Below, piece by piece: positions 1,233 to 39,925 of a stretch of 64,000 bases of DNA; positions within the stretch are counted from its first letter, which is position 1; each line of letters starts with the position of its first letter. The notes under the pieces were generated by a model. That model had not been told where the DNA came from. It searched no databases and saw only the letters and a program-made list of their open reading frames with translations. The position numbers and the translations under genes were made by a program. Source of the stretch: Selaginella moellendorffii (taxonomy: Eukaryota; Plantae; Lycopodiophyta); the NCBI RefSeq assembly GCF_000143415.4, contig NW_003314396.1, positions 109,994 to 173,993 of the forward strand, in the 5' to 3' direction.

Positions 1233-1284
1233 GTAAAGATGCAAGTATTCCTGTAAATGAATTGATCTTGAGTTCCTTAAGCAG
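1233..1284 (+). other. Putative spliceosomal intron 2 in integrase (52 nt), duplicate copy
   Basis: AAG|GTAAAG...TTAAGCAG|GT; removal restores KLTQRFAGPY. Confidence 0.85.
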
Positions 1285-2069
1285 GTTCGCGGGGCCTTAC
1301 GAGATTGAGGCACGAATCGGTAAAGTGGCTTACCGACTCCGACTTCCTCGAGAGATGCGGAAGATGCACCCAGTGTTCCACGTGAACTTACTCAAGCCGT
1401 ACTTTGAGGATCCGCTTCGCAAGGACCAAGTGAGACCTTTACCTGAGGTTATCCAAGGGGAAGAGGAATATGAAGTCGAGGCCATCCTCAATGCGCGCAA
1501 GAGCAAGCGACAAGGACGCGAGGTGAGAGAGTTCCATGTGAAGTGGAAAGGATTTCCACACTGCGAAGCAACATGGGAACCGGAGGAGAACCTAGCAAAC
1601 GCACGAGATCTAGTGGAGGAATTTCTGCAAGGCAGAACTCTATGTACTTATGCAAAATTCAATTAAAAATATCAATTTGCAAAGTTGAGCAAGTGGCATA
1701 TGTTGGGACCCGAAGGCGCGCCGAAGGTAAGCTAATTAGCATGGGTTGGATAGGTCGACCAGGCGTAGGGCACTACACCCGACTCCCCGCGGGGATGTCG
1801 AATCCGTAGACGTATTCTACAGAGGTTGGGTTCGAGTCCCAACCCCCTAGTAAAGCAAGGCTGGGTTCAAGTTCCGACCCCATACTAGGGCGTGGTGAGG
1901 TGAGGAGTATAGGGACACCTATATTCCGTTGTCATGGGCTCTTGGCCGGGGAGGCTAACTTAGGCACACCGCTAAGTGGGGGGATGCCCCCAGGGACATG
2001 GTCAACAAGTCGTAGGATAAAACGAGATGTTCGATGTGGGCATTGAACTTCTTCTATGGGTGGTGGAGT

Positions 2070-3228: not shown

Positions 3229-4117
3229 GTGGGCTCATGCAATTTTGAACCCAAAAATGCACCAAAAAATGCTCGACTAGCATTATTCTTTGAATGGCGT
3301 GTGGCCTTATATTGCCATAAATGAATGTACACACACAGCATAATTATTCTTTTACACAGCGAATAATCTTGGCGCGGATCACTGACACGGCATGGCAAAG
3401 TTCTAATCACTGACATGGCACAGCTGGATCGAGGCAAGGACATGATGTGACAAAGTTCAACCTCCGACAGCAAAATCTAGAAGCTACTCAGTTTGAAATT
3501 TGTCAGAGGAATCATAAGATCTGGTTTGTCAGAGGATTTGATGTGACGTTCAAGCGTGTGTTATTTTTGAATTCTCGAACTCATTCCTAGGTCTATCATT
3601 TTTGTGCGCCGTGTTCTTGGTTCCGCTGAGCGCAGTGAGCGCTGCTTGTGTAAGCGGCGTTGTGAGCTGTGGTTTATGCGTCTACAAGCAGTTGCGGCAT
3701 TGCGAGTGCCATTGCGAGCGGCAGTTTATGCGAGTGGCAGTTTGTGCGAGCGGCGCTACGAGCAGTTGTGGTGTTGCGAGCGGCACTACAAGTAGTTGCG
3801 GTGTTGCGAGCGGCACTGTTTTTGGTGTGGCTACCGCTTCCTCTTGATATTCGGCACTTGTGTTTCTTGGTATGTTCACCATGGAATGGCTTAGGACCAC
3901 ATTTAGAAATGGCATGAGGCCACATGCCATCTTGGGCCCTTGCAATTTCATGGCTAGCGTATTGTCATGTATGTTTTTACAAACATAAGTCTTGCAAGCG
4001 TTCAAAGAGTCTTTATATCGAGAATTGTAGTGATATCATTGTGGACATAAGGATGGGAACAAACATTACAAACTAAAGTCTATGGTGACTACAAAAGAAG
4101 CAAAAGTTCTTCATGAA

Positions 4118-18763: not shown

Positions 18764-18787
18764 AAGCTCTATTTCGTTAAAGTGGGA
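18764..18787 (+). repeat. Left TIR AAGCTCTATTTCGTTAAAGTGGGA
   Basis: Inverted match to 39902-39925 and to 215-238. Confidence 0.92.
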
Positions 18788-19205
18788 ATTGTCATTATCC
18801 CACTTGTAAAATAAGGTTTCCAAACCTTTATATAGTATATAAATATAACAAAATTCAACTGCATTGAGGCACATGCCATTTTATTTTAAACAAGGAAATG
18901 TCTACTCAATCACTTCTCCTCCCCCTGCCACTGCTTCACCTTTCTCTTCTCCTTGTCATCGTCGTCCAATTTCTTTCCATCCTTTTAATATTGGCTCAGT
19001 TGCTCCGAGTCTAGGTGGAGCCCAAGTCCCCATTCAATCTTTACTTTCCCCTTATTAATAAAACAACTTTGTAGACTTCCAATAACATGCTGTAACACTT
19101 TTAGTATAATGCAAATCCTCTCAAAGAATTGTCTTTTAATATTAATACAATGGCATGGAACCCCATGCCATAATAAGTTACATTTTTAAATAAATACATG
19201 CCATC

Positions 19206-20090
19206 TCAGACTGTTATTTTTTGCCTCCAACGCCTATACAATAATCTTGGAATTTCATCACTCTCCACACTATCAGGATTTAAACCCAATAATAATGCCA
19301 TCTCTTTTCTAATACGTCCACACTCATGTTCAGTGGTCGAAGAACCCATCTGGTTGAGCAGATTATGGAGATGCGGATAGTGCTTGGCTAGACAATATAC
19401 ATGCCATAAATGATGACTAGTGTCCATCCGATCAAATGGCTTCTGATATACCGTTCTATCTGCCATTTGGTTGATTTCTGCAGCCACCTCCTGGACTGGC
19501 CGATTCTCTATCACTATCGCTCCAAGCCATTTTGCAAGGTCCCCCAGAACATACGGTTTCTTCTCCCTAGTTTCCATACTGCAAGAGATGGGGTGCACTG
19601 CATATGTGTGCGTGTTCGCTACAGTTTTAATCGGCGAGTCATCGATGATGAGGATTTCACTTGACCTAGCAGTCTGGTTCATCACTACAGCCTCTGGCTT
19701 GACGAAGATGGGCTTGCTACCCCTCACATGGACCATAGTCAAGCAATCCTCCTGCGTTAGGAGAAAGTCAAATGGTAATATTACTCGCGTCTGATCGTGC
19801 ATCATCTGTAGCAACGTTAATGCATTGTGGCGCATCATGGATGTCCAAACTCCCAATTGCAAATTGAACCCGGCCCTCTGTTTTAAGTGTCGCATGGTCA
19901 TTATTAGATCCCGCAGTTTCTCCCGTGTGATTAATGTGAATCTGTCTCTTTTGACCAACTTGCGACCGCAGGCTTTGGAGGGTGCAGTGACATTCGAGGA
20001 CGAGCCACGCTCATGGGAGAAAAGGACACCGTTCAGATCAAAAACGATACAGTACCTTCGCCGTGACTCTGAAATGAAATGCGTCAGCAT
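19206..20090 (-). CDS. FCP1/NIF-type HAD-superfamily phosphatase-like domain (C-terminal part of cargo gene or a separate ORF)
   Basis: HAD motif I variant IVFDLNGVL, motif II GVWTS, conserved K (IFVKP), motif IV LIIDDSPIK. Confidence 0.8.
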   Translation of the reverse strand: MLTHFISESRRRYCIVFDLNGVLFSHERGSSSNVTAPSKACGRKLVKRDRFTLITREKLRDLIMTMRHLKQRAGFNLQLGVWTSMMRHNALTLLQMMHDQTRVILPFDFLLTQEDCLTMVHVRGSKPIFVKPEAVVMNQTARSSEILIIDDSPIKTVANTHTYAVHPISCSMETREKKPYVLGDLAKWLGAIVIENRPVQEVAAEINQMADRTVYQKPFDRMDTSHHLWHVYCLAKHYPHLHNLLNQMGSSTTEHECGRIRKEMALLLGLNPDSVESDEIPRLLYRRWRQKITV

Positions 20091-23000
20091 AAAAAATGGT
20101 ACAAGTCAATTTTACCATCTACAATATTAGCGAATGGTGCTCCCGATGGTCGTTGAGAGGGTTTTGGTCGAGGAAACATGAAGGGCGGAAATACTCTCCT
20201 CTGCAATGTGGGGTCAATCGCATCCGATGGCGTGTGGGCACATGCCATTTCAGCTGTAGACTCTGGTACAACTGGCTCAACAGTGGCATGGGGTGGTTCC
20301 GATGGCGTGTGATCACACGCCATTTCAGCTGGTGCCTCTGTTGGCAAAGTGGACATGACCGAACAGGCAGCAGGGGCAGTGTAGGGAGGTTCCAACGGCG
20401 CTTAGTCAGACGATTGGGCACACGTTGAGTCCGTTGGAAATGAGGATACGACCAGCTCGGCGGCTGGGGCGGCCTCATGCGGGTCCAATGGCGCCTGGTC
20501 ACCGTCAGTTGGATACGTGGACAAGATTGACTCAGTGGTATGGGCAGCATCAAGTGGAGCGTGGTCAGCTTGCTTGGCGTTGATATGGATAGTAGCCTCC
20601 ACCAGCTCTGATGACTCTTGCAGGCAAGTAGAGTCCACTGGCGGATCCATATGCATGTCCAAATATCTCCCTTCGATTGAGATGGTATCCTCCCGTGCTA
20701 CTAAAAACAAACTCATTAGCACATTGAATCGACTATACTGTATTTACCATCAACTGCTATTGAGGAACTAGGACCGATATCACTTGGGCGCACTGCTGAT
20801 TCTGAAGGATTGGACATACGTTTCGACCCTTGCTTGACTATCCTTCCTCGACACTAAAGGCTAGAGTTTGTAAATTCAACTGAATAATCTCTACTTACCA
20901 TTTGCTCTGCGACCTACATGGACAATGTTAGAAATGGTAAAAGGTTAGGAATGGATGTACTATTATTTACCTGATGGTTTGTCTTGTATGACCTTCCTCT
21001 GCTGCTCTTTGGCCACCTCAGGCTGGCCATCGTCGTCATCATCGTCGTCGTCGTTATTGTGATCGTCACCATTGTGAGGACCATCCAAGTCCTCTTTGTC
21101 CTCCTCTTCTTTGTCCTCCTCTTCGTCCTTCTGCTCTTCCTGCTCATTATCTTTCTCTGGCTCCTCATCCCCCTCCTGCATTTCTTCCATAGGCTGCTCA
21201 GGCTGGATGGCTTGTTCTTCCAGGACCATCTTGGGAAAATCATCTGGCCGAGTCTCCATCTCAAAATACAAGAAATCCATAGCCTGTTTTAGTGCATGAC
21301 CTAGGACCGTATCCTCACCCGACTGTCTTAACATGGTTTTTGCACGTTCTTGCACCCTTCGAAGAGGGCGAGATGAGAAAAACGTGGCTCTGACTTGAAA
21401 AGCATCCCTCATCCATTGTACCTCTCCATTGAGATTGGGGAAGGGGAGTCCGCCATAGGAATCTGAGTCAGGAGGTGGTGACTGCCTGCTTTCACTCAGC
21501 CCTTGATCTGCAACGAATGGCATGAGCACACACGCCATAACCGCGAGGCATTACCTATCATCTTTTCGTTGCCCTTCTTCCTTTTCGAATCAAACGCCTC
21601 TGATCCCAACGACTGTCCAACGTGCTTTCGCTTTTTATGACCACTGTCAGTTTGAGCTTGGCTGGTGCTTGCCTGTTTTGCCTTTGAAGAAGTGTCTCCT
21701 GCAAGGAATGACATGAGACCACACGCCATTGCAAATATAATTTGTACCTCCTTTTTTCCTATTGCTTGTCTGTTTGTCCTTCTTCGACGCGCCACCAGTG
21801 TGCTTTTCAGTCCTTGTGTCTGAATATTCACAATGATCTATAATCAAAATGGCGTGAGGCCTCACGTGACCTTACCTTGTGCAGGTTGTGAGCTCGGCCC
21901 AACATGGGTATCTTCAACAGTAGCTGTTAACGCCGTTTCAGTATCTGGGGGTGGCCACGCTCCTGCATACAGAGCTTGTGAGATAACATTTAAACTTAAA
22001 GTGCATACTCACCAGGTTCGCAGAGAAGATACTGTTTTTCTTTGGCAACTGTAATTATATGCTCCATTGAAGTCACCTCTTCAATGGAGTTTGTCACCGC
22101 AACACACGGGACACCCTTGAGTAGTGCGGCTTGAAAGAATAGTCCACCGCAATTGTACTCGACAACGTATTTGCCCTTGGAGTCGGAAGCAGGTGACCCA
22201 CCCGCTATTGCGTTGAAGACCCAGCTGAGCATTTCCCATGCTGCACCTGGAGCTTTCTTTGGATTCGAAAGCTCCATAGCCGTCTTCAGTTCCTTAGGCA
22301 CGGGTAAATTGACCTCCCTCAGATCAATTCGATCGGCCTTGTCGAACGAAGCTGGGAAGTCACTCCAGTCCCACTCTGCTACAGGACCAATAACAAGGGT
22401 GAGTGTGAAGATGCGGACATTCGTCGGTATCTTCTTCTTAGCCATTATCCCATGGATCTCCCGCATCTCCTTGCCTTTCAACCGAGCCTTCACCTCGTTC
22501 AAGGCCTTCCAGAACTTGTGATAGGATTCAGAGTCGTAGATCATATAGTGGACTGAAGATTCCACCTCCGCAAGTCCCACCATTAAGTCAATGATGGAGC
22601 TGACTTCGTCTGCATGAGTGATCTCCTCGTTTGTGAAGTCCATCACACAAAAGATGTTCTTGACCTGCTCATCTCTGCGGGAAACGATGCTCCTCCACCT
22701 TTGATCCTCATCCAAATTCAAGTATACCAGTAAGATTCTCGATAGGCCTCTGCTGCGGGGTCGAGCTGTTTCTAAAGCCGGCGGTCGACATCCCTCTTAA
22801 TGAAATTTGGATACTGATCCAACTTCTCAGCTTTACTTTTCGTGGCATCCCGCAGCAGATCGATGAACTTGGGGGCCCCCTTCATGTACTCGTCGATGTC
22901 TTCATTTGACAAATCCAGCGCTTCCATCATCTCTTGCGTGGTGTCGATGCTCACCCTCTCCATGGCCACTTGCTCGAAGATCCAATCCTTCAATAGCGCA

Positions 23001-23514
23001 CGAGCTCTCAGAGTCGTGCACAAGTCCTCGTATGTCACAATATGGCCGGGAGTCATTTTGGTCTTGTTGAAGACTACCTCACCACGTAGAAAAGCATTAG
23101 CCACTGTCAGAAGGTCGTCGTCGTCTAGAGACCGCAAGAAACGCAAGGTGTTGAGCTTCAAATCATTGGGCTTGCGGCCGTCCTCCACACCCATTGAGTT
23201 TAGTAACTCCCCGTCATGGTACCTCCTCAGCACATCTACCCATTTGTCCAAAACAACTTTTGTCGCGAGTAGAATGTTATGGATGATGAGTGTGTCATTG
23301 ACCCCCAGTGTTTTCGAGAGAAGACTCGAGAATTCCTGCAATGGAAATGGCGTGAGGCCACATGCTATGCCACATGCAACGAGGCTTACCTGCCAGGCGC
23401 TAGTTGCTAGTGCACGTCCTTGTCCTGGTTTTTGTGGCTTCTTCAGTTGAACCCAGAGCTTCCATGTTCGTGCCAATGTCTCGTGCAGACCCGATTTGTA
23501 GCACGTTTCTTGCT

Positions 23515-23900
23515 TGACATTCTGCGCGTGGGAGATGTATATGATAGATCGGAGGGGCGAGTTGCCTTTTATCAGGCGGACAATGCTTGTCTTGAAGACT
23601 TTCTTCACCTCCTCACCCACCATAATATCCACAACTATCTCTTGCATCGCCAAGCTAGAATGCTGCCCGGAGACGGCATAGAACCGGATGTTCTGATCGT
23701 CCAACACCTTCCTATTGATCAAATTTGGAAACCTCATCTCGCCCTTCATTTTTTGGTAGTAGGGGATCACGTCTGCGATGTCGGGTGTTACTGGACTTGC
23801 CAGCATCTTCTGCTTCAATTTCTCCACCCACTCATCAGATACTAGCCTGTGGTTGTATTTGCTTTGGATGTCGATATGGCTCACGTCGATTGTATATACT
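23515..23900 (-). CDS. ParB/sulfiredoxin-like domain within cargo gene
   Basis: Pattern IDVSHI...HRLVSDEWVEKLKQKM...ADVIP...FYAVSGQHSSLAM...IVRLI...ISHAQN follows the ParB/Srx motif order (GxHR-like = GQHS; EN-like = QN). Recognised by eye. Confidence 0.6.
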
Positions 23901-26085
23901 TTGTTGGAATAGTAACAAGTACTATTATCTGCGACGATTTTTGCTGCCTCTTCTTGCTCTTTCTGCTCTTTGCGGCTCTTCTTTTTGGTGGGTGTAGTGT
24001 TCGAACCCGAGGCAATGGCATCACCGAGTAGCTTCTTTTTTGGAGCAGAAGAGTCGGACGTCGGCTTGAGCTTGACCACCCTTTTCTGCTTCGGGGTAGT
24101 TTCCAGATCGACCCCCTTCCCCTTCGCTTCGCGAACTGGAGGCACTCTCAACGGCTCAATGTTGGAATATAGTTTTTAAACATCGCCGTAGGTGAGGTCC
24201 GTGGATTCCATGTGATCTTCATAGACCCGTAGCGTCTTTGAAATTGTGGGCCTCCTGGACAACCTCTCCCTAGCTCCCTCTAGGAATTCCTCATAGCCGC
24301 TGCCCCCCTCCGGGAAGCTGCTAGGATGTGCAAAGTGGATCTTGAAGGCAGACGTTGTCTCTACCACAAGTGCCAGTCCATATTCTTGCATGGAACTGCA
24401 TGGAGTGTCTGTCACTTGGATGAGGATCCCCATGCATTCTTTTCTCCCACCATCTGTGTTGTACAGCCTCAGATCCTCGCCTTCCATCCCGAAAGTCCAA
24501 CTGGTGAGCTCCTCCCCCTTCTCTACATCCACATTGACAGTGGCTGGAAGAAGAATGCAATTCCTCGCCTGTTCCAAAATGCACAACAATTAGAGCTGAC
24601 AGATGAAAAGCTAGCAGCTGGAAATAACGTAAGGCCACACGCCATTCACCACTGCATCAGATGTCTTGAGGCTGCATCCTAAGATGGCATGAGGCTACAC
24701 GCCATCTGTAACCGGACTACACTCAAGAGCCCAATCGGTGCATGCCAATGTTGCTACTGAATGGCATGTGGCCTCATGCCATTTTCTACTTGGCCTAAAA
24801 GACTTACCATTTGAAGCCGAATGAAGGCGTGACAATCGAGGCCGGACTCGCTGGCGAATGTGCATTGTGTGTGCAGCGGATCGTAGCAGCAAGGCTACTC
24901 TGCCACTTACAGTTGGAGAGTGGCGCTGAAATCTCCCGGGACGCCAAGTGGGCTGCATGTGGGTGGCGGAGTGGGCGGCGGAGTTGGCGGCAAAGTTACA
25001 AACTGGGTGTGTCTTGAAGTGGACGCCGATGCACACGAGCGCGATGCGAGCGCGAGTGTGATGCAAGCGCGAGTGGACGCCGATGCACATGAGAAACCTG
25101 TAGAGAAGGTAGATGAGCGCGAATGTGAGCGTGATCGCGAGTGGGAGCGCGATGCGAGCGCGAGTGTGCGAGCGCGAGTACGAAGCAAAATGCAAAACCT
25201 AACCTCACACGCGCGAAATGTCACGACGGTTGGTAATCCCGCCACGTCATCATTCCTCGGACTTGGGCGCCACCATTAATTTCTGGATCGCCGCGCGCAT
25301 GCATGCACGTGAAATCCAAAAGAAATCCGCAACGTCATCATTCCTCGGACTGCATGCATGCGAAATCCAAAAGAAAGATCATGATTGGGATATCATTTAA
25401 TACCCTCGCTATATTTATACCATGCATGATTGGATATTCCAAAGCATCTTGTATTTCCAAAAATGCCAGATGTTCAGCCAAATAAATTGTCAGAGGATTT
25501 GATGTGACGTTCAAGCGTGTGGGCTCATGCAATTTTGATCCTAAAAAATGCACCAAAAAATGCTCGGCGTCATCTGGCGTTATCTCTTGAATGGCGTGGG
25601 GCCACATGCCATTTTCAGGGGCACATAGGAGTATATTCCTAGAATATTCTAATACGCACGAGATTGTTTTGAGTTTTTTGGAGATCCAACCGTTAGATCG
25701 CAACTAGATTTTATAGAATGGTATACAATGTCTTTCTTGATGACCCTGCAAAGAAGCATCTCGATCGGACACCACATGAGACCACACGAGCCTTACAATG
25801 TTTCAGGGGCATTTGCCATAGATCCGACCGTTATTTTGCTCCAAGATTTTACAGTTTGGTGTGCATTGACCTTTCCATTGACACTGCAAAGGGACATCAC
25901 AATCAGATGTGGGATCACAAGAAACTAACTTCACTAACTCTGGTTTCACCAAGATCTATGTAAGGAGTTCTGAAATGAAAGGACCCTCTCTATTGAAATG
26001 TGTTTATGGTCCTAGGGGCATTGTGACATATCAAAGGATTTTGCATCAAGTTCTGTATTTGCATGTTTATCAAGCTACTGAATTG

Positions 26086-26105
26086 CTAAACCCTAAACCC
26101 TAAAC
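26086..26105. repeat. Short plant telomere-type repeat (telo-box-like)
   Basis: CTAAACCCTAAACCCTAAAC. Confidence 0.6.
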
Positions 26106-26452
26106 ATGTGGCAAATGCTGCGTGAAGAAAGATGCCCTTTCTGGGCAAATGCTGTAAGAGGCAGATGCCGAGCAGATGTATCTCAGGCTAGCGAAGGGGA
26201 CAAACGAAAGCTAGCTATAAACATGACGGGATGCAAATAGATTACTAGGCTGGTCCTACGAAAATCAAAAACCATAATTGAAAACATTGAAAATGCAAAA
26301 AGAAAGGTTTATAATATTTTTGAATTTTAAGCAACCAAAGGAATGTAAGTAGGGCATGTGTTTGTAAGTTTAAAAATGCCTCAACCACTTAAATTCCCAA
26401 GTAAATAAAGCTGTTTCCATTTTTGGTACAGGTAAACTTTATAGCGTGTGGG

Positions 26453-27586
26453 TGTAAGGAACCGAATCCCCGAGATGTCGTTGGCTAAAGGATCCCCAAA
26501 AGCTTGACCGAAATGACAAAGAGTTCATCGGATGGGACCAAGTCGAGGATCGAGTCCAAGACCGACTCTAGGACCGAGTTCGAGATAGAGTCCGGAATCG
26601 AGTCTGAGACCGACTCGGGGACCGAGTTCGAGTCCGAGTTTAAGACCGAGTTCGAGACGGAGTCCGAGATCCGAAATCAGGGCCGAGACCGAGTCCGAGG
26701 TCGAGTCCGAGGTCGGGTCTGAGATCGAGTCCGAGACCGAATCCGAAGTCGGATCCGAAATCGGGTCCGAGATCGAGCCAGAGACTAAGTCCAAATACTA
26801 ATACGGGTCAAGGGGTGAAAGCCCAAAGCGTGCGTCTCCCAGGGGGGGGGGGCTGCAGGGGGTTCCAAAAGTATAGTAGGGATAGTGAGGTCCAGGAACC
26901 AGTTTTGAAGGGACTCTCCAGTTGGGCTTCCAAACCGACTTGAGGTTGAGACTGGGACCGAGGGGCCTTGGGTGGGAGTGAGCATGGACTTGGCTGGTGC
27001 CGGAGGGGCCATCCAAGGAAGTGCTCAAGAGCAGCTCCCACTCTCGAAAGGGAAACCGACTGCGGTGCTCCCAACTCAGGTGGAGTGGTGCCCCACTTGA
27101 GTACCTTGTGGCTCATTGGTCCTCGCCCTTCCGGGGGCTTGGGCCTTCCCTTCGGGATGGAAGAGGGGGGGTAGAGGTACCCATACCGGGCTGTTAGGCC
27201 ACGGTGTTTCGCCCCGACGTCCCGAAGTAAGTGCTGCACCCAAGGCTTGGGATTTAGAGGGTCCCATGATCAAGTCTTGTGGTACCAAGGGGTGTTAGGA
27301 ATCTGGAGGCTTGGTGTGCTTGGCTGCTTGTGCCTGCGGGGAGTGTAGCCGAACCTTAAGTCCAGTCTAACCCGGGGAGGGGGATTGGGAGAGATTTGGG
27401 AATCCGTAGATGGATGGCTAACACTCTGTTGCTCGTGCAGTGAGTAGCTGAAACCAAGTAGGACCAAGTAGGAGCTGGTACCATAGGCGAGAACCTTGGC
27501 GAGGGAACTTAGCACAAGCCAAGGCAGAGTTGGTCGGATAGACGAGGTGAGCTAGCAAATTGGAAAGGAAAAATTTGTGGCTTACA
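26453..27586 (+). repeat. 5' LTR, family A
   Basis: Direct repeat of 33130-34285, differing by scattered substitutions and an indel in the hexamer array. Confidence 0.97.
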
Positions 27587-27589
27587 ATT

Positions 27590-27602
27590 TGGTATCGGAG
27601 CC
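27590..27602 (+). promoter_or_regulatory. Primer binding site (tRNA-iMet)
   Basis: TGGTATCGGAGCC 3 nt after the LTR; one mismatch to the canonical TGGTATCAGAGCC. Confidence 0.9.
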
Positions 27603-30487
27603 TCTTCCTCAGTTCTAGCAAAGGATAGAGGCGGATTGCTGGGAGATGGCAAGGGCAGGACGTAAGCGAACCCAGGCGGAGACGGAACCCCCTCCAGAGC
27701 TAGAGCCTCCGGTCGAACAGGAGGCTATGGATGAGGAATCGTTGCATGAGGAGGACTCCAGTGAGGCAACTTCCAAACAGGAGTCCGGTGGTGAGGTTCG
27801 GTCGTCCAAGGCTCGATTGGACGTTCTAGAAGGACAATTGGCAGAGACCAATGCACTGCTAGAGACTCTCGTACGCAAGCTAAAGCGTGACGAGAAGCGG
27901 AAGAAAAAGCGAAAGACTGTGGATGCTAGTAGCGCAGAAGGTGCAGACCCTTCGGCAGGGACTGAGGCAAAACCAGACAAGGTCGAACAGACCGAAGTGG
28001 AATCAGTCCCTCAGGCAGTTCCCAAGTACAAACCGAAGCCCCCACCGGTCTTCAAGGGAGTGAACGACTATAAGGTGGTGGAGGATTGGTTTTACGATAT
28101 GGAGGACTACTTCCGAGCGTTGCGATTACCGAGCTCGGAGAAGGTCCCATGTGCAAAACCATACTTGGCAGATAATGCCAAGTCTTGGTGGAGAACAACG
28201 GAGGCCAACGAAGGACCGGTGGCCACTTGGGAAACGATGAAGGCGAGGATCCGCGCAACTTACGTTCCTCCGAATGCTACTCTGCACCTAAGAGACGAGT
28301 TGAGTAGGCTGAAGCAGACCGGAACCATTTAGGAGTATGTGAATGGGTTTATGGCAAAGAGGATACTTGTCACGGACATGGGGGATATGGATGCGTTCCA
28401 TGCCTTCATATCAGGTTTGCAAACCTGGGCTCGTGGCGAAGTAATGCGGTGGAACCCGACCAACTACAAGGAAGCGTTGGATGCGGCCATCAAGGTGCAT
28501 TTCAACGATAACCTGCGAAAGGGGAACACGACGGGGTCGGGATCCACGTTTAGCAAAGGGGCCAAACCAAGGGGAACGTTTAGCAGAGGGAAATTCAAGA
28601 GGAGTTTCTCTAAGAATGAGTCCTCGGGGTTCCGGAAAGGCAAATCCGGTGGCCAGTGAGCGAGTACATTTGGGAGTCAAGCGAAAAGAGACAAACCCAC
28701 GGATAAGAAGGTCAAGTCGTATAGCAGCGTGGGAAACAACGTATGCTACAACTGCGGTGAAGCAGGACACTTCTCGAGGGAATGTCCCTACCCGAAGAAG
28801 GCTAGAGCCAATATGGCCATCAAGTCGGGTGAAGTCCAAACGGAGGTATGTGATCCAGTCCCTAACTCAAAGTTACTCATTACACGAGCAACTTTGGTAG
28901 AGAGTCGTTCGCGACATCTACTAGCCCTCCGAGGGAAGCTCGGAGGTAGCTTTGTTAAAACCCTTATTGACACGGGTGCTTCGGATGATTTTGTGGCTGC
29001 AAACATAGTCTGGCAAGCCGGACTAACGGTGCAGTGGCTAGGCGAACCAAGGACTATAGAGTTTGTTCAAGGTAGCCAAAGCACCGATGAGGTACTTCGA
29101 CAAGCGAGAGTCGAAGTGGGGACTTGGAAGGTGGACATGGATTTCACCGTGTTGGACATGGCGGGATTTGACGTGATCTTCGGAATGGACTGGTTCAATC
29201 GATTCGTGGTAGCCCTGCATGGACAAGATAGAAACCTTGTGGTACTGGCGAATGCCCAAGGAAGAAGATCTAGGGTGGAGGCCCAAGATCTAAAGGTAGG
29301 GCAAAGCAAGGCCAAAGATTCCTGCTTAAACCTGGTGTCCACGAGAGGACAACTCACTAAAGGAACTAAGGCGGCCTTTTTGTGCTTACTCTCGGTGAAG
29401 AGTGACAAAAAGACAGGAATGGAAGAAGTACCTTTAGTGATCCAGCGGGTGTTGGACCAATTCCAGGATACCATGCCGGAGGAGCTACCGGCGGGGCTAC
29501 CCCCAGCACGACCGATAGAACATAAGATTGAGCTGGTCGAGGGTGTTGAGGCAGTGGTTCGTACCCCTTATCGTTTGAACGAAAAAGAACTCAAGGAGCT
29601 CAAGTGCCAACTAGAAGAGTTGGTGGACAAAGGGTATGTTAGGTTGAGCAAGTCGCCGTATGGGGCACCGGTGTTATTTGTGAAAAAGAAAGATGGATCT
29701 ATGCGCATGTGCATAGACTACCGGTTGCTCAACAAGTATACAAAGAATAACAATTACCCTTTGCCAAGGATTGAGGACCTGTTCGATAGGTTGGGAAAGG
29801 CAAAATACTTCTCGAGGATTGACCTAAGGTCAAGATACTACCAAATCAGGGTAGCCGAGGAAGATGTCGAGAAGACAACCTGTCGAACGAGGTATGGGAG
29901 ATTTGAGTTTTTGTTGATGCCCTTCGGGCTATGCAATGTGCCGGCAACGTTTTCGGCGCTAATGAACCACATCTTTGTACCCTATCTGGATCACTTCGTG
30001 GTCGTCTATATCGACGACATCCTGATCTATAGCGAGACTCTAGAGGAGCATGCCGAACACTTAGCGAAGGTGTTTGAGAAGCTAAGGGAACACAAACTAT
30101 ATGCTAAAGAGAGCAAATGTGACTTTGCTCAACAAGAGGTAAAGTTTCTCGGGCATGTGGTGGGCCAAGACGGGCTCAAGGTGGACCCGGAGAAGGTCCA
30201 AGCGATCCAGGAATGGGAGCGACCATCCAATGTACACGAGTTGAGGGCATTCCTGGGGCTATGCAACTACTATCGAAAGTTTATCAGACACTATTCGAGA
30301 GTAGCCCTGCCCTTAATGGACCAAACAGGAAAAGGGAAGATGGTGTGGACAGCGGAATGCGAGGCGGCATTCGTCCACCTCAAAGGGAAGTTGAGGAAGG
30401 CTCCCGTATTGGCATTACCAGACTTTGGTAAGGACTTTGAGGTAGAAACGGATGCTTCAAACTTTGCGTGACGTTAGGCCGTCCATC

Positions 30488-30837
30488 NNNNNNNNNNNNN
30501 NNNNNNNNNNNNNNNNNNNNNNNNNNNNNNNNNNNNNNNNNNNNNNNNNNNNNNNNNNNNNNNNNNNNNNNNNNNNNNNNNNNNNNNNNNNNNNNNNNNN
30601 NNNNNNNNNNNNNNNNNNNNNNNNNNNNNNNNNNNNNNNNNNNNNNNNNNNNNNNNNNNNNNNNNNNNNNNNNNNNNNNNNNNNNNNNNNNNNNNNNNNN
30701 NNNNNNNNNNNNNNNNNNNNNNNNNNNNNNNNNNNNNNNNNNNNNNNNNNNNNNNNNNNNNNNNNNNNNNNNNNNNNNNNNNNNNNNNNNNNNNNNNNNN
30801 NNNNNNNNNNNNNNNNNNNNNNNNNNNNNNNNNNNNN
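30488..30837. other. Assembly gap (350 N)
   Basis: Run of N. Confidence 1.
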
Positions 30838-31828
30838 AAGGCTCAACGGAAGTGGCCTACCCACGAGAAGGAATTGTTTGCGGTGGTCAAGGCGCTCAAG
30901 GAGTGGCGACACTACCTTGGGAGACACTTCAAGGTTTACACGGACAATGTGGCAACGAAACACTTCTTGTCACAGCCTGAACTAAGAGGGAAACAAGGTT
31001 GGTGGGCCATTGCCTTGGCTGAGTTTGATTGCGAGATTCTGTACAAGCCTGGGAAGAGCAACATCGTGGCGGATGCGCTAAGTCGAAAAGCGAGCTTGAG
31101 GTTGGCAATATCCAGCGCAACAGCAACCTTCTGGGACGATGTGCGGACAGCATATGAGAATGATGGTCTAGCACAAGAAGTGTTGCTGAGGAATCTAGAG
31201 GAGCGGGAAGCTCACCAGAGAGGTGAGCTGCCAAAGGAAGAGAAAACGGGCTATGCGGAACGCAACAGACTCATCTATTACAAGCAAACGAGGGTGTATG
31301 TTCCAGAAGGGGAACTAAGGAAGGTGGCCTTAGAAGAGTGTCATGACGGACCTCTTGCGGGACACGGCGGAATGCCCAAGACGATGGGCTTACTCAAAAG
31401 GAAGTACCATTGGCCAGATATGGCTAAGGACATCCAAGACTATGTAAAGACATGTCCAACATGTCAGCAGGTAAAAGCCGTGACTAAGGCTAGTGGGGGC
31501 TTGTTGCAAAGCATCCCAATTCCAGATCGCCCGTGGAAATGTCTTACGATGGACTTCATCATAAGACTCCCCCCAAGCGAGGGGTTTGATACGATATTTG
31601 TGGTGGTGGACCGATTTTCGAAAATGGCACACTTCATACCCACCACAACGGAGGTGGATGCGGAAGGTGTGGCAAAGCTGTTCTTCGAACAAGTGGTTCA
31701 AGTGCGGGGAAGACCGGAAGAGATCATCTCAAATCGAGATAAGATCTTCACCAGTAGGTTCTGGAGGACTCTCCTAGAACAGTATCGCACCAAGTTGAAA
31801 TTCAGCACAGCCTATCACCCACAGACAG

Positions 31829-31874
31829 GTATGGGGTATTAAGTCAAGTTGTTGGCACTAACACTTCTTGACAG
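31829..31874 (+). other. Putative intron 1 in integrase catalytic core (46 nt)
   Basis: CAG|GTATGG donor, branch-point-like CACTAAC, pyrimidine run, CAG acceptor; contains an in-frame TAA; splicing restores YHPQTDGQTERVN. Confidence 0.88.
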
Positions 31875-32292
31875 ACGGACAAACGGAAAGGGTGAATAGG
31901 CAGCTGGAGGATTATTTGCGATGCTATGTCTCGGGAGACCAGACCGATTGGGTAAGTCATTTGGGACTTGCGGAAATGTGTTATAACAACTCACCACATT
32001 CGAGTATCGGGGTGAGTCCATGGGAAGTCATCAATGGGCGAGCTATTGAAGGTCCTGTGGAACTCGGCGTGGCCGAGTATCATGGAGAGTTGCCCGCAGT
32101 GGAGGCATTCACGGCGGAAAGACTCAGCATTTGGAATCTAGTGAGGGATTCCTTGGAACGGGCTCAACAAAGGCAAACCAAATACGCGAACCAGAAGCGT
32201 CGGGAGGTAGAGTTCCAAGCTGGGGAGAAGGTGTGGCTAAACACCAAGAACCTCAGACTACCAAGCGGGATCAGCCGAAAGTTGACCCAAAG

Positions 32293-32344
32293 GTAAAGAT
32301 GCAAGTATTCCTGTAAATGAATTGATCTTGAGTTCCTTAAGCAG
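32293..32344 (+). other. Putative intron 2 before the integrase GPY motif (52 nt)
   Basis: AAG|GTAAAG donor, AT-rich body, GCAG acceptor; in-frame TAA; splicing restores SRKLTQRFAGPYEI. Confidence 0.88.
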
Positions 32345-33129
32345 GTTCGCGGGGCCTTACGAGATTGAGGCACGAATCGGTAAAGTGGCTTACCGACTCC
32401 GACTTCCTCGAGAGATGGGGAAGATGCACCCAGTGTTCCACATGAACTTACTCAAGCCGTACTTTGAGGATCCGCTTCGCAAGGACCAAGTGAGACCTTT
32501 ACCTGAGGTTATCCAAGGGGAAGAGGAATATGAAGTCGAGGCCATCCTCAATGCGCGCAAGAGCAAGCAACAAGGACGCGAGGTGAGAGAGTTCCATGTG
32601 AATTGGAAAGGATTTCCACACTGCGAAGCAACATGGGAACCGGAGGAGAACCTAGCGAACGCGCGAGATCTAGTGGAGGAATTTCTGCAAGGCAGAACTC
32701 TATGTACTTATGCAAAATTCAATTAAAAATATCAATTTGCAAAGTTGAGCAAGTGGCATATGTTGGGACCCGAAGGCGCGCCGAAGGTAAGCTAATTAGC
32801 ATGGGTTGGATAGGTCGACCAGGCATAGGGCACTACGCCCGACTCCCCGCGGGGATGTCGAATCCGTAGACGTATTCTATGGAGGTTGGGTTCGAGTCCC
32901 AACCCCCTAGTAAAGCAAGGCTGGGTTCAAGTCCCAACCCCATACTAGGGCGTGGTGAGGTGAGGAGTATAGGGACACCTATATTCTGTTGTCATGGGCT
33001 CTTGGCCGGGGAGGCTAACTTAGGCACACCGCTAAGTGGGGGGATGCCCCCAGAGACATGGTCAACAAGTCGTAGGATAAAATGAGACGTTCGATGTGGG
33101 CATCGAACTTCTTCTATGGGTGGTGGAGT

Positions 33130-34285
33130 TGTAAGGAACCGACTCCCCGAGATGTCGTAGGCTAAAGGATCCCCAAAAGCTTGACCAAAATGACAAAGAG
33201 TTCATCGGATGGGACCAAGTCGAGGATCGAGTCCAAGACCGACTCTAGGACCGAGTTCGAGATAGAGTCCGGAATCGAGTCCGAGACCGACTCGGGGAAC
33301 GAGTTCGAGTCCGAGTTTGAGACCGAGTTCGAGACGGAGTCCGAGATCCGAAATCAGGGCCGAGACCGAGTCCGAGGTCGAGTCCAAGGTCGGGTCCGAG
33401 ATCGGGTCCGAGATCGAGTCCGAGATTGAGTCCGAGACCGAATCCGAAGTCGGATCCGAAATCGGGTCCGAGATCGAGCCAGAGACTAAGTCCAAATACT
33501 AATACGGGTCAAGGGGTGAAAGCCCAAAGCGTGCGTCTCCCAGGGGGGGGGGGCTGCAGGGGGTTCCAAAAGTATAGTAGGGATAGTGAGGTCCAGGAAC
33601 CAGTTTTGAAGGGACTCTCCAGTTGGGCTTCCAAACCGACTTGAGGTTGAGACTGGGACCGAGGGGCCTTGGGTGGGAGTGAGCATGGACTTGGCTGGTG
33701 CCGGAGGGGCCATCCAAGGAAGTGCTCAAGAGCAGCTCCCACTCTCGAAGGAAACCGACTGCGGTGCTCCCGGCTCAGGTGGAGTGGTGCCCCACTTGAG
33801 TACCTTGTGGCTCATTGGTCCTCGCCCTTCCGGGGGCTTGGGCCTTCCCTTCGGGATGGAAGAGGGGGGGTAGAGGTACCCATACCGGGCTGTTAGGCCA
33901 CGGTGTTTCGCCCCGACGTCCCGAAGTAAGTGCTGCACCCAAGGCTTGGGATTTAGAGGGTCCCATGATCAAGTCTTGTGGTACCAAGGGGTGTTAGGAA
34001 TCTGGAGGCTTGGTGTGCTTGGCTGCTTGTGTCTGCGGGGAGTGTAGCCGAACCTTAAGTCCAGTCTAACCCGGGGAGGGGGATTGGGAGAGATTTGGGA
34101 ATCCGTAGATGGATGGCTAACACTCCGTTGCTCGTGCAGTGAGTAGCTGAAACCAAGTAGGACCAAGTAGGAGCTGGTACCATAGGCGAGAACCTTGGCG
34201 AGGGAACTTAGCACAAGCCAAGGCAGAGTTGGTCGGATAGACGAGGTGAGCTAGCAAATTGGAAAGGAAAAATTTGTGGCTTACA
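33130..34285 (+). repeat. 3' LTR, family A
   Basis: TG...CA ends, preceded by PPT-like GGGTGGTGGAG, followed by the TSD. Confidence 0.97.
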
Positions 34286-35237
34286 GTGGGCTCATGCAAT
34301 TTTGAACCCAAAAATGCACCAAAAAATGCTCGACTAGCATTATTCTTTGAATGGCGTGTGGCCTTATATTGCCATAAATGGACGTACACACACAGCATAA
34401 TTATTCTTTTACACGGCGAATAATCTTGGCGCGGATCGCTGACACGGCATGGCAAAGTTCGAATCACTGACATGGCACAGCTGGATCGAGGCAAGGACAT
34501 GATGTGACAAAGTTCAACCTCCAACAGCAAAATCTAGAAGCTACTCAGTTTGAAATTTGTCAGAGGAATCATAAGATCTGGTTTGTCAGAGGATTTGATG
34601 TGACGTTCAAGCATGTGTTATTTTTGAATTTTCGAACTCATTCCTAGGTCTATCATTTTTGTGCGCCGTGTTCTTGGTTCCGCTGAGCGCAGTGAGCACT
34701 GCTTGTGTAAGCGGCGTTGTGAGCTGTGGTTTATGCGTCTACAAGCGGTTGCGGCATTGCGAGCGCCATTGCGAGCGGCAGTTTATGCGAATGGCAGTTT
34801 ATGCGAGCGGCGCTACGAGCAGTTGCAGTGTTGCGAGCGGCGCTACGAGTAGTTGCGGTGTTGCGAGCGGCACTGTCTTTGGTGTGGCTACCGCTTCCTC
34901 TTGATATTCGGCACTTGTGCTTCCTGGTATGTTCACTATGGAATGGCTTAGGACCACATTTAGAAATGGCATGAGGCCACATGCCATCTTGGGCCCTTGC
35001 AATTTCATGGCTAGCGTATTGTCATGTATGTTTTTACTTGCCTGCAGCTGTGTGTATATCAAGATAGCATGAGGCCTCATGCCAATTTTGTGAATGCAAA
35101 ATTTCACGTGGGTGTCAATAGCATGTTTGAATAATGGCATGTGGCCTCATGCTATTGAGGTTGTTTGGTATGTTATGATTTTGGCCATTCTCCAATCATT
35201 TTTTGTATGGTCTTAACTTCTTTTCTGCACTTTCAGA

Positions 35238-38200
35238 ATGGCCTTCAGGGTTGGGGAAAAGGTTTACATTTTGAATGGTGGGAAGAGAGTTGCAAAAGGG
35301 ACCCTTGTGTCTATGGATCAGAACTTTGTTATACACTGTCAAAGGCTTGGGGAAGGCAATGCTGCTGTATCAGTAGAGACTGTCTTCGATGGGAATGTGG
35401 TTGCTATTGAACGAGGAGAGATGGTCGTCGGGGTAAATATTGTTGTTGCCTTGAAAAATCTTCAGAAGAAAGCAGATGTTGGGGACAGTGCAAGTGCGAC
35501 GCATGTTCCCTCCGTGGATTTTAAGAACCGTGCTACATGGATTCAGGCAAAGGTGTTTCTAAACAACCCCGAGGGGGAGGTGGTAGCTGAGGGCTTAGCC
35601 ACAGTTGTCGATCCAAGAGATGCGGTTGCTAATCAAGAATTGGGCTGGGATGATATTGGAGTTGCGATTTTAGAGGTTGTTGACACAGAAGAAAACAGTC
35701 TGACTATTGGAAGCATTGTACGGTGGAAATTGAGGCACTTAGTGTTTGAGAATGTGAAGGATTCACAATCAAACACCATTACAACTGATGACAGAACATC
35801 TCTTCATGGGAAAAGAAAGTACACCTTCCTAAAGCGCAGCCAAAGGGATCTAAGCAACGAACCGAAAAGGTAGAAAATGGCGATGGAGGTTCGAATGGTC
35901 TCGACAGTTGCTTGTTGCAAGAGGAGGTGCTGTCAGCATGCTGAGGGATGCTATTGAAGAGGAGAGAGCAAGATACAAGACATTGTCCTAGAAGGCAGCT
36001 CCCAATTTTGTGTATGAGGCATTACGGTCATCTGTTGATGCTTCAGAACATCAGGTGGGGGGCATGGTCTTCCAGAGGGGTTTGGTCTGCATGAAGGCAT
36101 GGAGAATCATTTATAGAGTCCCTCGAACCACATTCTATAGAATCAAAACTGAGTTCGAGGAACAAAGGGTTCAACAGGCAGTCCATGAGAACGACGGTAC
36201 GCACAAAACCAGGGGTCATGTTGTATATGGAGAGGCAATCTTCAAGAGGTTTGTCGAGATATGTAGCGAGCAGCAACCACATAAAACCCACCTCTTGGAA
36301 GATGGAACACGAGACACCCAACGAGTTCTCCCTTCCATGTATACCAAGGGGGCCATATTGGAAGATGTGAATCGGGAACTCCAGAGTAATGGCTACAGGA
36401 AGCTGAGCCAATCTAGATTTAGTAGATTGTGGAGCAACAAGTTCAGGGATGTGAGTATAGGAAAGTACTCCAGTTTTCAAAGTGTGACGAGTGCACTACT
36501 ATCAAAATGGCTTTGTCGAAGAATTCTTGCAGCGCTCAAGAGCGAGAGATGTTGGTTAGAAGGCGGCTCGACCACAACATCGAGCAGAGAAGCTGCAGGA
36601 CTGCATATTATCATAACAGGATTCTCTCCATGGAGAGACCTGACTCTTACTTCTGCATCATCCACGACAAAATGGATCAGAAAAAGACATGCTTACCTCG
36701 ACTCAATCCTGCCTCCAAGGCAATCTCTTCATCCATGCAGCTGCCTGTGTCTCTGTTTGGCATAATCGCTCATGGGCATGGTGCCCAGAACTATGGGAAC
36801 TTCTTTGTACCTCTATGGGGTGGCGGGGTGCAAACATGATGATTGCGTCCCTAGCAAAACACTTAAGGTCTCTACAAAGTGCGCAGACTGAGCTGAACGG
36901 CCAACCCTTGCATAAGGCCCTTGTCGATCGAACCCCATACAGGGTTCAGCTGGAGGAGGAGCAAAGGCTTGCAGTATCGCATGGGCCCCCATGCCATCCC
37001 AGTGAATATGTTGGCCGTCAGATTGTAGGGTTATCACGTGAGGCCTCATGCCATTCCGACGAGGCTGGTCGCCCGGTGAATGCACAGCCTCATCCAAACA
37101 AAGCAGAATCTCAAGGAAGTTCTTGCGGCCGATGTGGCCTTCCACCCCATCTTCTGCTCCAAACAGACAATGCTGGCAGTGAGAACAAAAACATGTACGT
37201 CTTCGCGTACTTGGCGATGCTTGTTGCCAAAGGCATATTTGAAACGGTTACACTTGGCTTTCTCATGGTTGGGCACACTCATGAAGACGTCGATGCCATG
37301 TTCAGTCACCTGGCAGAGTCCCTCCGGCAATCCAATGTCCTCACCCTCCCACAACTCTACGATGAATTCCAAAATTGCATCAAAGGCACTGTTGAAGCTG
37401 CACTTGTGACAAAGGTTTCAAACTTTAAGGGGTTTGTAAGAGGCTACATCAGGGACGGATCCAAAACGCTGATTGGCCACTCCAAGCCTCTTCAGTTTCA
37501 TTTCAGCATGCGTGACGGTGCTCCAGTGATGAGGTACAAGATGAGAGAATGGGACACAGTGTGGCTGCCAGTGGACAGCATTGAACTCTTCAAGAGAGAT
37601 CCCATAACTGGGGAACCTATGATTCCTCAGGGTTCCCCACGGCCGATGCACCCGGATGGACTCAAAGACCAGGAAAGTATAGTGGCCGGGATTAGACAGC
37701 ATATTGCCTTCTGGAAGAGGGTGTTGGTGTTTGGTGGAGAATCCTATTTTCAGAGGTGCAAGCCTTTGCTCGAATACTAGGAGAAGATTATATCTGCTAT
37801 CCAAAATGGGCCAGTTGTATATGAAGAATTGGAAGAGTCCTTTTGGCCAGAACCCAGAGCACCAGATAGTAGCGGAACAATGTCCTCTAGAAATGCAGTG
37901 ACAGATAACGATGTTGAGGATCACTATTGTGGGCCGAGGAACAAGAAGCCGAATTCAGCATTCAATCCAGTACAGGTCTGCAAAGGAATGGTCGTGCTTG
38001 TCAGACCCAGTAATAAAAAACAAATGATATGGGTGGGGCGCTGCATCACTGATGTAGAGGAGGACACGGAAACTAACTCCTTCAATGTAACTGTGGAGTG
38101 GTTCAAGCCAAGTTCCGGATATACGAAGGATTGCCTAGAAAAGAGATGGGTGCTCAATCCAAGGGATCCCAGCATGAGCATATCGGTGGATAATGTTGTG

Positions 38201-38302
38201 CATGGTTGGATGCGGAAGCAGAGTGCCACCATCACCTTGCCGGACCATGCAAGAGATGCAACAAGAGCATTCATAACCCGGGTTCAAGGTGAGATTCATT
38301 AA
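35238..38302 (+). pseudogene. Transposase gene (RNase H-fold DDE/D type, DUF7869/Sola-like motifs), disrupted
   Basis: In order: two N-terminal beta-barrel-like repeats (VAKG/VAEG...LG), CCxxxCC, VCMKAW..IY HTH-like region, FSKCDEC, IIHDKMDQ, LQTDNAGSENKN, FLMVGHTHEDVDAMFS, C-terminal SH3/Tudor-like region. Stops at 35871, 35989 and 37778 plus frameshifts. Superfamily not verified. Confidence 0.75.
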
Positions 38303-39016
38303 TATTCCTTTACTAAGTTTCTAATGTATTTTATTTCAAGGTGAACAATCCAAATCTGAATCAGAGGAGGCGTGATGGCATGTGGCCTTACGCCATTCCT
38401 AGGTGAGATGATACAAATAACAAGTATAAATTCTTAGTTGTTCTAGCAAATCTTACTTAAAGTTCAAGGTGAACAAGCCGAATATGAATTCATCAGATTG
38501 TTATAACAAATTGCGAGGTGATGGCATGAGGCGATACGCCATTTGAGAGTGGTAGCCATTCCTATATGAGGTGAGTGAAATATTTATTAGAAATACCTCA
38601 TTCAATTGTGCACTTCTAAATCTTGGTCCACTCAGTACTGTTTGCATGTTTCTATTTTAATTCTTTCTCTAAAATGTTATTTAGCATGTGGCTTCATGCC
38701 ATTGCTCTCCACAATCATGCATTGAATTTTTCTATCCTTGCATAATACTTCTCCATATATATAGCATGTGTGCACATGTGATATGGTTCATTAGGCCTGA
38801 TATAGTGTGTGAGGTAAAACAAAGATGATGTGACATATGCATTTACCAATCACACGTGCATAAATCTAATAATATGGCGTGTGGCCCATATTAATGGCAC
38901 ATAAACCCATATTGTGGGCTTACGTGCTTTATGTACCATCATTCCCTTGCAGCGTGTGTGTTGGTTTCCTTTTATAACACAACAAACTCCATATTTTAGG
39001 GTGAAGAGCGTTCTCA

Positions 39017-39273
39017 TGGCAAGCACAAAATCTGTAAGTGAGGCAGAAAAGGAGACAGAGAAGGAGATAGGTGAAGATGTAGAATATATAAGTCTTCCAA
39101 ACTCCCCGTACTATACTCCAGGTGATCATTTTTCTGAACAAACGGCAACATTAACAACTATTGAGAACACCCCAGTAACGTCAGAGACAACAATCCAAAG
39201 CAAAACAACTGACCCGGAGAAGGATGATAGTACCGCTGAGAGTACCAAAAAGGAGGTGTCCACTAGCGCTTAG
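39017..39273 (+). CDS. Possible exon of a third small transposon gene (acidic, S/T-rich)
   Basis: ATG-started reading frame MASTKSVSEAEKE...; acceptor-like TTTTAG upstream and donor-like GAG|GTGTCC at ~39256; no recognisable domain. Confidence 0.3.
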
Positions 39274-39901
39274 GCTTATAATGGCGTGTGCCCTCATGCC
39301 ATTTACTTGATCACCAAATACCTTTTTCCCTTTGCACTAGTATATCTTAATACCGGTTTGAGAAATAGAATGGCATGTGCCCTCAGGCCTTTCACCTTTG
39401 AAAGAAATGCAAGCCTCTATGTCGTAAAAAAAAGGTACTAGAGAAATTCCTTAATAATATGAATGTTATTTAGTTTCATGAAAATACACTAAGGGTCAAA
39501 TGAGTTAAATGACTTCTCCAGACTAGCAATGCCTCTTGCTACACCTTCACAATTAGATTCGTTAGAAAAAGATAACATTGAATAATATCTAAATGTTCTC
39601 ACCATTAAGTTATATGTCTGGCTAATAGGAATGACGTTCATCTTGGAAAGCTCACCACACGCTCAATGAACAAACAAATAGTGTGTGCGCGCATGCCATT
39701 GCTCTTCTTTAGCTTCAGATTCGGCTTGTTCACCTTGACAATGAGATTTATTATACAACCAGATGGACTCAGTCTGGACACAAATTCACCGCACTAGTCA
39801 CTATACCCCAGATATGTCTAGCCCCTAGACAAAAAACATATCATTTCACGTCATTTTCAAATACTTGAAAATTTGTATCTAGTCCCATTTTACTGAATAA
39901 A

Positions 39902-39925
39902 TCCCACTTTAACGAAATAGAGTTT
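39902..39925 (-). repeat. Right TIR (AAACTCTATTTCGTTAAAGTGGGA on the minus strand)
   Basis: 23/24 match to the left TIR; abuts a truncated LTR A. Confidence 0.92.

Follow-up and report, generated by a model that had tools for sequence, protein, structure and literature searches.

A 22-bp palindrome occurs 25 times in the 64-kb stretch of Selaginella moellendorffii DNA analysed here (contig NW_003314396.1, positions 109,994 to 173,993; called the window, with positions counted from its first letter), and 24 of these sites lie in one large DNA transposon. The element carries a divergent gene pair, namely a DUF7869 transposase on the plus strand and, opposite to it, an accessory gene on the minus strand, hereafter the cargo gene. 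On a slight balance of probability, and judged from the sequence, the palindrome is a double-stranded DNA site which marks this one transposon family and would be bound by a dimeric element-encoded protein, the leading candidate being the ParB-like part of the cargo protein. Through such binding the element could recognise copies of itself and would likely keep them active against host methylation. Introns of ordinary size, at least partly older, would be used as parking space for the sites, and in introns 2, 5 and 6 of the cargo gene the right arm of the palindrome (CTCAY) would have taken the branch-point position, with one sequence acting both as protein site and as splice signal.

Number and placement of the palindrome

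The scan accepted up to 5 mismatches to the dyad consensus ATGGCRTG-WGGCCW-CAYGCCAT (22 bp, spacer of 6 nt), and 50 block-wise dinucleotide shuffles served as the control; the shuffles had a mean of 0.18 sites and a maximum of 2. The site outside the transposon, at 3909, lies in a partial duplicate of the element, and the remaining ~49 kb of the window had none at this threshold. A further dyad was split (26441-26452 and 34286-34300) by the insertion of a Gypsy retrotransposon; the empty junction has 3 mismatches, and the dyad is intact in other copies of the element (three sequencing runs). The landing of the Gypsy element inside a dyad may be due to chance or to open chromatin at the site. 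Altogether, dyads make up about 4% of the DNA transposon. The two genes, the nested retrotransposon (LTR, long terminal repeat) and the main dyad groups outside the cargo introns are located as follows:

19205..24810, minus strand: cargo gene, 11 exons, 1,638 aa (ten-intron model, single frame)
20227..20323, no strand: dyad pair within a 75-bp tandem duplication of the cargo linker (coding DNA)
25512..25612, no strand: pair of dyads (25512, 25591) within the divergent promoter region; segment duplicated at 34286-34363
26453..34285, plus strand: nested Gypsy LTR retrotransposon with a 5-bp duplication (GTGGG), inserted mid-dyad
34927..35236, plus strand: predicted 5' intron of the transposase gene, 310 nt, before the ATG at 35238; dyads 34966, 35064, 35134
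35238..38301, plus strand: transposase, DUF7869, with a weak Transposase_23 match at the N-terminus; broken in the window copy
38375..38782, no strand: four dyads downstream of the transposase (38375, 38521, 38681, 38761), from the dyad scan
39370..39699, no strand: two subterminal dyads (39370, 39678), from the dyad scan

Dyad density was 10.1 per kb in the cargo introns and 9.7 per kb in the predicted transposase 5' intron, compared to 2.5 per kb in other non-coding DNA of the element and 0.5 per kb in coding DNA. The higher density of introns over other non-coding DNA (binomial p=0.002; p=0.013 for the cargo introns alone) agrees with an earlier reading of this DNA made from the letters only (the sequence-only reading), which had staked its claim of intronic palindromes on this comparison. 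The same reading proposed that introns let the sites be spaced through the gene body at no coding cost. This is true for most sites, which are non-coding, but four of the 24 (20227, 20302, 36976 and 37033) lie in coding DNA, the last two in a variable insertion of the transposase catalytic domain, and the idea that all dyads are intronic was rejected because of them. The cargo gene body holds nine dyads, and 17 of the 24 sites are outside the cargo introns. Beside the start of both divergent genes the dyads are clustered in threes, the arrangement in the transposase 5' intron being the mirror image of that in cargo intron 1. The best-matching dyads are internal, 3-7 kb from the element ends; the left end has a site at 19150 plus a degenerate one at 18858 (4-6 mismatches at this end), and the terminal inverted repeats themselves have none.

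The dyad has spread in part by local duplication, since several of its sites belong to duplicated segments (20227/20302; 25512-25612 and 34286-34363; 38375/38521). The same segments speak for regarding the dyads as neutral remnants of local duplications or as host transcription-factor sites gathered by the element, and the dyad centre presumably resembles a plant TCP-type site. Such an origin is nevertheless quite unlikely, because the dyad is conserved where its flanks are not, the other ~49 kb of the window is free of sites, and a relative of the element, described below, has a different dyad.

Gene model and introns of the cargo gene

The ten introns of the cargo gene and one putative plus-strand intron are listed below; the position of the branch-like A is given relative to the 3' end.

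24569..24807, minus strand: intron 1, 239 nt, phase 0, directly after the ATG; dyads 24624, 24684, 24761
23336..23389, minus strand: intron 2, 54 nt, phase 0, length a multiple of three, stop-free; dyad 23347-23368 with the only branch-like CTCAC, A at -18
21963..22012, minus strand: intron 3, 50 nt, without dyad; branch-like CTCAC, A at -17
21820..21875, minus strand: intron 4, 56 nt; dyad 21849-21870 abuts the donor
21699..21747, minus strand: intron 5, 49 nt; dyad 21708-21729 with the only branch-like CTCAT, A at -16
21508..21554, minus strand: intron 6, 47 nt; dyad 21517-21538 with the only branch-like CTCAT, A at -16
20914..20970, minus strand: intron 7, 57 nt, without dyad; CTAAC, A at -15
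20854..20898, minus strand: intron 8, 45 nt, without dyad; TTTAC, A at -18
20701..20747, minus strand: intron 9, 47 nt, without dyad; CTAAT, A at -16
20069..20115, minus strand: intron 10, 47 nt, without dyad; CTGAC, A at -16
39256..39340, plus strand: putative intron-like stretch that contains dyad 39281-39302 and follows a short open reading frame (ORF) starting at 39016

The cargo reading frame (24810 to 19205) is single only with five breaks of the window copy read as X (24178, 22774, 22729, 20836 and 20402), and other copies of the element differ at all five. Retention of any of nine introns leads to an early stop, the exception being intron 2. The five cargo introns of the sequence-only reading (1, 2, 4, 5 and 6) all have GT..AG borders at the positions and lengths it gave, and its palindromes were found where it had put them, one in each of the four tiny introns (at 21517, 21708, 21849 and 23347) and three in intron 1. 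That these stretches are introns is supported by the early stops for introns 1, 4, 5 and 6 and by homologs for intron 2, but no junctions were seen in RNA: sequencing run X20, which was guessed to be RNA and is silent on expression, had none, and its contigs were unspliced across introns 1 and 10. The plus-strand stretch at 39256-39340, also put forward in that reading, does contain its dyad and has a good acceptor, but the donor is weak (GTGTCC) and no frame requires its removal.

Removal of intron 2 is supported by homologs and not by frame need. Its insert is missing from the Selaginella homolog P0041, where the gap falls exactly at this place (57.3 bits for the spliced form against 43.3 for the retained one), and the RefSeq protein P0051 reads WQ|EF at the same position, as in the spliced form. 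Moreover, the genomic ORFs P0042 and P0047 end right at the intron 2 position, and other ORFs start right after it. The homologs sharing this position are only about 27-31% identical to the cargo protein.

Introns 2, 4, 5 and 6 have one dyad each, with 1-3 mismatches to the consensus, and had been described as little more than splice signals plus a palindrome. The dyad as the cause of small intron size was rejected: five introns of the same gene (3, 7, 8, 9 and 10; 45-57 nt) are equally small, and their best dyad matches have 10-13 mismatches (near-final coordinates). Small introns are normal in this gene. Introns 3-10 are all phase 1 and cut the low-complexity linker into small symmetric exons (20069-22012), which suggests that the linker grew by exon-intron duplication.

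One alternative raised in the sequence-only reading was a small, introner-like insertion that creates introns and has the palindrome as its core. In its favor, the last 31 nt of intron 6 are identical to intron 5 at 27 positions (87%), and the dyad brings a ready-made branch-like sequence; a copied dyad together with TTGCAG would yield a working 3' end. Introners, however, show full-length likeness at novel positions, and here the 5' parts of the dyad introns are unalike (shuffle p 0.23-1.0), the position of intron 2 is shared with distant homologs, same-sized introns exist without the dyad, and most sites are not in cargo introns at all. This alternative is therefore very unlikely. Because the intron 2 position is common to distant homologs, the sites were likely placed into pre-existing introns.

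Overlap of the palindrome with predicted branch points

The general branch-point consensus is YTNAY. The position range was calibrated on the cargo gene's own motif-free introns, in all five of which the A of a YTNAY lies 15-18 nt before the 3' end. In introns 2, 5 and 6, three of the four tiny introns with a dyad, the sole such sequence is the CTCAY of the dyad right arm, at 18, 16 and 16 nt, respectively. The right arm is thus predicted to coincide with the branch point in these introns. Random placement would give at least three such overlaps with a p of about 0.02. Two points weigh against this overlap. The p value of about 0.02 is post hoc, and intron 4 can be fitted only by assuming a 38-nt variant; in this intron an in-frame cryptic TAG acceptor is present 18 nt past the A of the dyad's CTCAC.

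What would be new in the finding is the possible second function of the dyad as a branch point; in the literature searched, which left most subscription papers uncovered, there was no report of palindromic transposon sites overlapping branch points. If real, the overlap would show in compact form how one sequence can be DNA operator and splice signal at once, and it might protect the binding sites of a selfish element from decay. Only tentatively, and with more doubt than belief, we extend this to a land-plant ParB/parS-like self-recognition system in which the operator doubles as the branch point of the binder's own introns. A copy losing the operator would then also lose cargo splicing, locking protein and site together, and splicing might be linked by direct feedback to DNA occupancy or to hairpin formation.

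DNA site or RNA hairpin

The position of the dyad would also suit an RNA hairpin masking the branch point (introns 2, 5 and 6) or the donor (intron 4) and so throttling or switching cargo splicing, the second alternative of the sequence-only reading. Intron 2 is in frame and stop-free, and its retention would insert 18 residues. Predicted folds of introns 5 and 6 have the CTCAY inside an 8-bp stem (folding z-scores of -2.06 and -1.70, respectively), but intron 2 folds no better than its shuffles (z=0.45), and intron 4 reaches z=-1.34. The arm pairs on the transcribed strand of 18 sites (n=144) comprise 117 Watson-Crick, 13 G.U, 9 A.C and 5 other pairs; A.C is nearly as frequent as G.U, a comparison which is confounded by the window copy's own C-to-T decay. 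The dyad centre GGCC is itself symmetric, positions 10 and 13 being complementary in 20 of the 24 sites, and such a centre cannot pair in a hairpin. Furthermore, the hairpin leaves the intergenic, near-end and coding sites unexplained, and no Rfam match was found in 18700-40000. Regulation by a hairpin is thus unlikely. A DNA site bound by a dimer is the simplest reading of the dyad, given the lack of a clear G.U bias, the symmetric centre and the further sites between the genes and close to the ends.

The cargo protein as candidate binder

The cargo protein has a ParB-like region (about aa 225-395), followed by a helical region and a degenerate methyltransferase-like region (about aa 600-835), and after these come an acidic/low-complexity linker and a NIF/FCP1-type phosphatase domain at the C-terminus (NIF, PF03031, E=1.4e-5; 19209-20066, minus strand). 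In other proteins, domains of this type target the tail of RNA polymerase II, and the NIF domain would fit a role in transcription. The assignment of the ParB-like region is weakly supported, by the resemblance of the N-terminal region in the Atlas to DUF3723 (0.95) and to a ParB_N cluster (0.92; ParB_N in 35% of members); an invariant F-x4-GQH is common to the cargo protein and its homologs.

Several results weigh against the proposed binder. Pfam, PHROGs and NCBIfam gave no ParB match in the cargo protein, nor did a profile search against PDB, and the hhalign score against 30 ParBs from one bacterial phylum (14.4) was within that of shuffles (maximum 19.8). The methyltransferase-like region fared similarly (16.0, shuffle maximum 22.2), and there is no (D/S/N)PP(Y/F/W) motif anywhere in the cargo protein. 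This region is at best a degenerate methyltransferase, to judge from a motif-I-like stretch shared with P0041 and a non-significant methyltransferase match of the homolog P0048 (E=0.53); PF01555 had no match in the cargo protein, an Atlas search with the methyltransferase-like part gave no usable match, and sequence searches of PDB were negative. Single-sequence structure models (pLDDT 34.5 and 39.1) were unusable, and the fold search had no match at E<=0.001. Among the element ORFs scanned, no ATPase of the ParA family was found.

A full HMMER search with the cargo protein gave 8 matches, the nearest named ones being Selaginella moellendorffii proteins, and word-index homolog searches among proteins of 256-816 aa and 679-2000 aa gave nothing. 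Two of the 8 HMMER matches, P0043 and P0045, were discarded because repeats drove their scores (P0045 fell to -3 bits after removal of intron 2). The annotated Selaginella moellendorffii proteins P0041 and P0051-P0053 match the cargo protein from just past the GQH through the methyltransferase-like region and may be truncated or domesticated cargo versions. The viral contigs searched contained neither relatives of the cargo protein and transposase nor the exact dyad.

The transposase as rival candidate binder and its relatives

The transposase (DUF7869, E=3e-40; no MULE or MuDR match, i.e., none of Mutator type) is the main rival candidate for the binder. In that case the transposase itself would bind the dyads as its DNA sites, in the role of transcriptional regulator or transpososome scaffold, and the cargo protein would have nothing to do with them. 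Its nearest named relatives are liverwort proteins (30-40%); within the literature coverage given above, no paper mentions DUF7869 or describes the family. Eighty-one loci with related transposases were compared, 49 of them (at least 3 kb) by a dyad scan without shuffles and 10 by a shuffle test, the contigs being short. In one relative, L005 (47% transposase identity), a different 18-bp dyad is present in 10 copies, all upstream of the transposase gene, against a maximum of 2 in shuffles. This array, at 526-1725, is the observation most pertinent to the transposase as binder, as the locus was found via the transposase and no cargo gene was seen in its 5.6-kb contig. The weakness of the ParB assignment points the same way, and the available part of one account reports transposases as sequence-specific activators of their own copies (10.64898/2026.08.24.746577). 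However, the best dyads of the window element are internal, 3-7 kb from the ends, and the left-end ones are degenerate; no dyad is in the terminal repeats, and nine are in the cargo gene body. Binding by the transposase with no part for the cargo protein is thus doubtful.

The different array of L005 lends modest support to the view that the dyad is family-specific. The window-type dyad was found in the 81 loci as a single stretch with 5 mismatches, in the overlapping loci L013/L014. Against binding by the cargo protein stand two further results. A clear dyad excess was present in only one of the 10 shuffle-tested relatives (L005), seven having no clear excess, and tblastn found a cargo homolog in none of the 81 loci, so that joint travel of dyad and cargo is not demonstrable. 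In L001 and L002 a third dyad recurs 3-4 times inside tandem repeats, a weak case, and the high dyad counts in L015, L033, L039, L061, L078 and L081 are clustered arrays. Other family-specific dyads, with 2-4 copies each, were seen in non-coding DNA flanking related transposases (L001:629-925, L002:55-196, L004:36-113, L008:53 and 3415). The right subterminal region of L005 shares a 17-bp stretch with the window element.

Comparison with known systems

In bacterial ParB-parS systems, repeated palindromic sites of 16 bp lie near the gene for a ParB/Sulfiredoxin-like protein, which has a ParA partner. The window element is similar in having a repeated palindrome (22 bp, 25 sites, the candidate target) near a gene with a putative ParB/Sulfiredoxin-like motif. 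In contrast, it has no ParA, the site is 22 and not 16 bp, the GERR box is replaced by SGQH, chromosomal ParB gives no significant profile match, and the gene is eukaryotic and contains introns.

The systems that follow were compared through the parts of the cited accounts available, and likenesses and differences are limited to these. In Arabidopsis, VANC21 motifs sit in VANDAL introns and have built up there and in other non-coding DNA (PMC5735166, PMC10398659). As in VANDAL21/VANC21, a DNA transposon with an accessory gene here has a short element-specific motif in intronic, intergenic and terminal non-coding DNA, spread by local duplication and differing between families. VANDALs, however, are Mutator-like, with a 9-bp non-palindromic motif in same-orientation tandem arrays, whereas the window element has a DUF7869 transposase, a dispersed 22-bp dyad and a cargo protein without a VANC family match; the VANDAL21/VANC21 descriptions compared contain no branch-point overlap (PMC5735166, PMC10398659). 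By analogy, the element would work like VANDAL/VANC, of which it is not a member. If true, this reading would carry VANC-like self-recognition over to an unrelated transposase and protein fold in early-diverging plants.

The Plavaka (EnSpm) elements of Bostrychia carry the ParB-like PAG3 and inverted-repeat units, and PAG3 is proposed to bind and modify its own element, with a ParB call that is also weak (HHpred E 0.29) (10.1101/2025.02.11.637652). Both are large DNA transposons with a ParB-like accessory protein and inverted-repeat units. In Plavaka, tandem arrays adjoin PAG3 and a 2OG oxygenase is the partner, whereas here the dyads are dispersed through the introns of both genes and the cargo protein has a degenerate methyltransferase-like region and a NIF phosphatase. 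The Ectocarpus element Sola1-1_Ec32 is a giant DNA transposon with an opposite-strand accessory gene for ParB-like and N4C/N6A methyltransferase domains (PMC12477816). It shares with the window element the accessory gene opposite the transposase and the putative ParB-like and methyltransferase-like regions, although the region here lacks the catalytic motif and profile confirmation expected of an amino-methyltransferase, and palindromic sites are not described in the part of its account compared (PMC12477816). Fusions of ParB-type helix-turn-helix and methyltransferase domains are described in chlorophytes and chytrids (PMC4738411).

A ParB-like cargo with inverted repeats is thus already known from algal transposons, and the architecture is precedented. 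Such accessory genes were proposed to bind their own elements, and the parts of the papers compared give no tested site. In comparison, a sharp 22-bp candidate site in many copies, together with a different dyad in a relative, makes the self-binding hypothesis testable.

Structure and surroundings of the element

Almost the whole window is transposon DNA. The dyad-bearing DNA transposon has 13.3 kb of own sequence once the nested Gypsy element is excluded, and is bounded by the following repeats:

18764..18790, plus strand: left terminal inverted repeat, 27 bp, 93% to the right end
39899..39925, minus strand: right terminal inverted repeat, last base ambiguous (39922-39925)

The left boundary is supported by other copies of the transposon, in which the sequence departs at 18764. 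A check of the superfamily (Sola, EnSpm/CMC) gave the 27-bp terminal repeats and no readable target-site duplication around the element, whose flanks come from different LTR families. The right-hand flanking LTR lacks its first part at 39922-39925; the differing flanks and this incomplete LTR suggest an adjacent deletion or rearrangement at the element border. The contigs of the sequencing runs compared revealed a large family of copies in one organism. Differences of the window copy from other copies were methylation-type transitions in 88 of 107 places (run X3).

At the start of the window (1-3980), an inverted left-end copy (1-238 corresponding to 19003-18764, 97.5%) is fused to a duplicate of 31297-35037 (98%), which comprises Gypsy interior, LTR and part of the DNA transposon. 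This structure resembles a composite insertion via alternative transposition, or an assembly artefact. An assembly gap (run of N) lies at 30489-30838 within the nested Gypsy element. The divergent promoter region contains two plant-type telomere repeats (AAACCCT) at 26088-26104, and short CG-rich repeats are present at 25029-25197 and 34710-34879, near the presumed start of each divergent gene. On the plus strand, the short ORF at 39016-39272, which has no match in Pfam or in the related transposase loci, is acidic and Thr/Ser-rich, with acceptor-like sites before it; it may be a third gene or may extend the transposase transcript at its 3' end.

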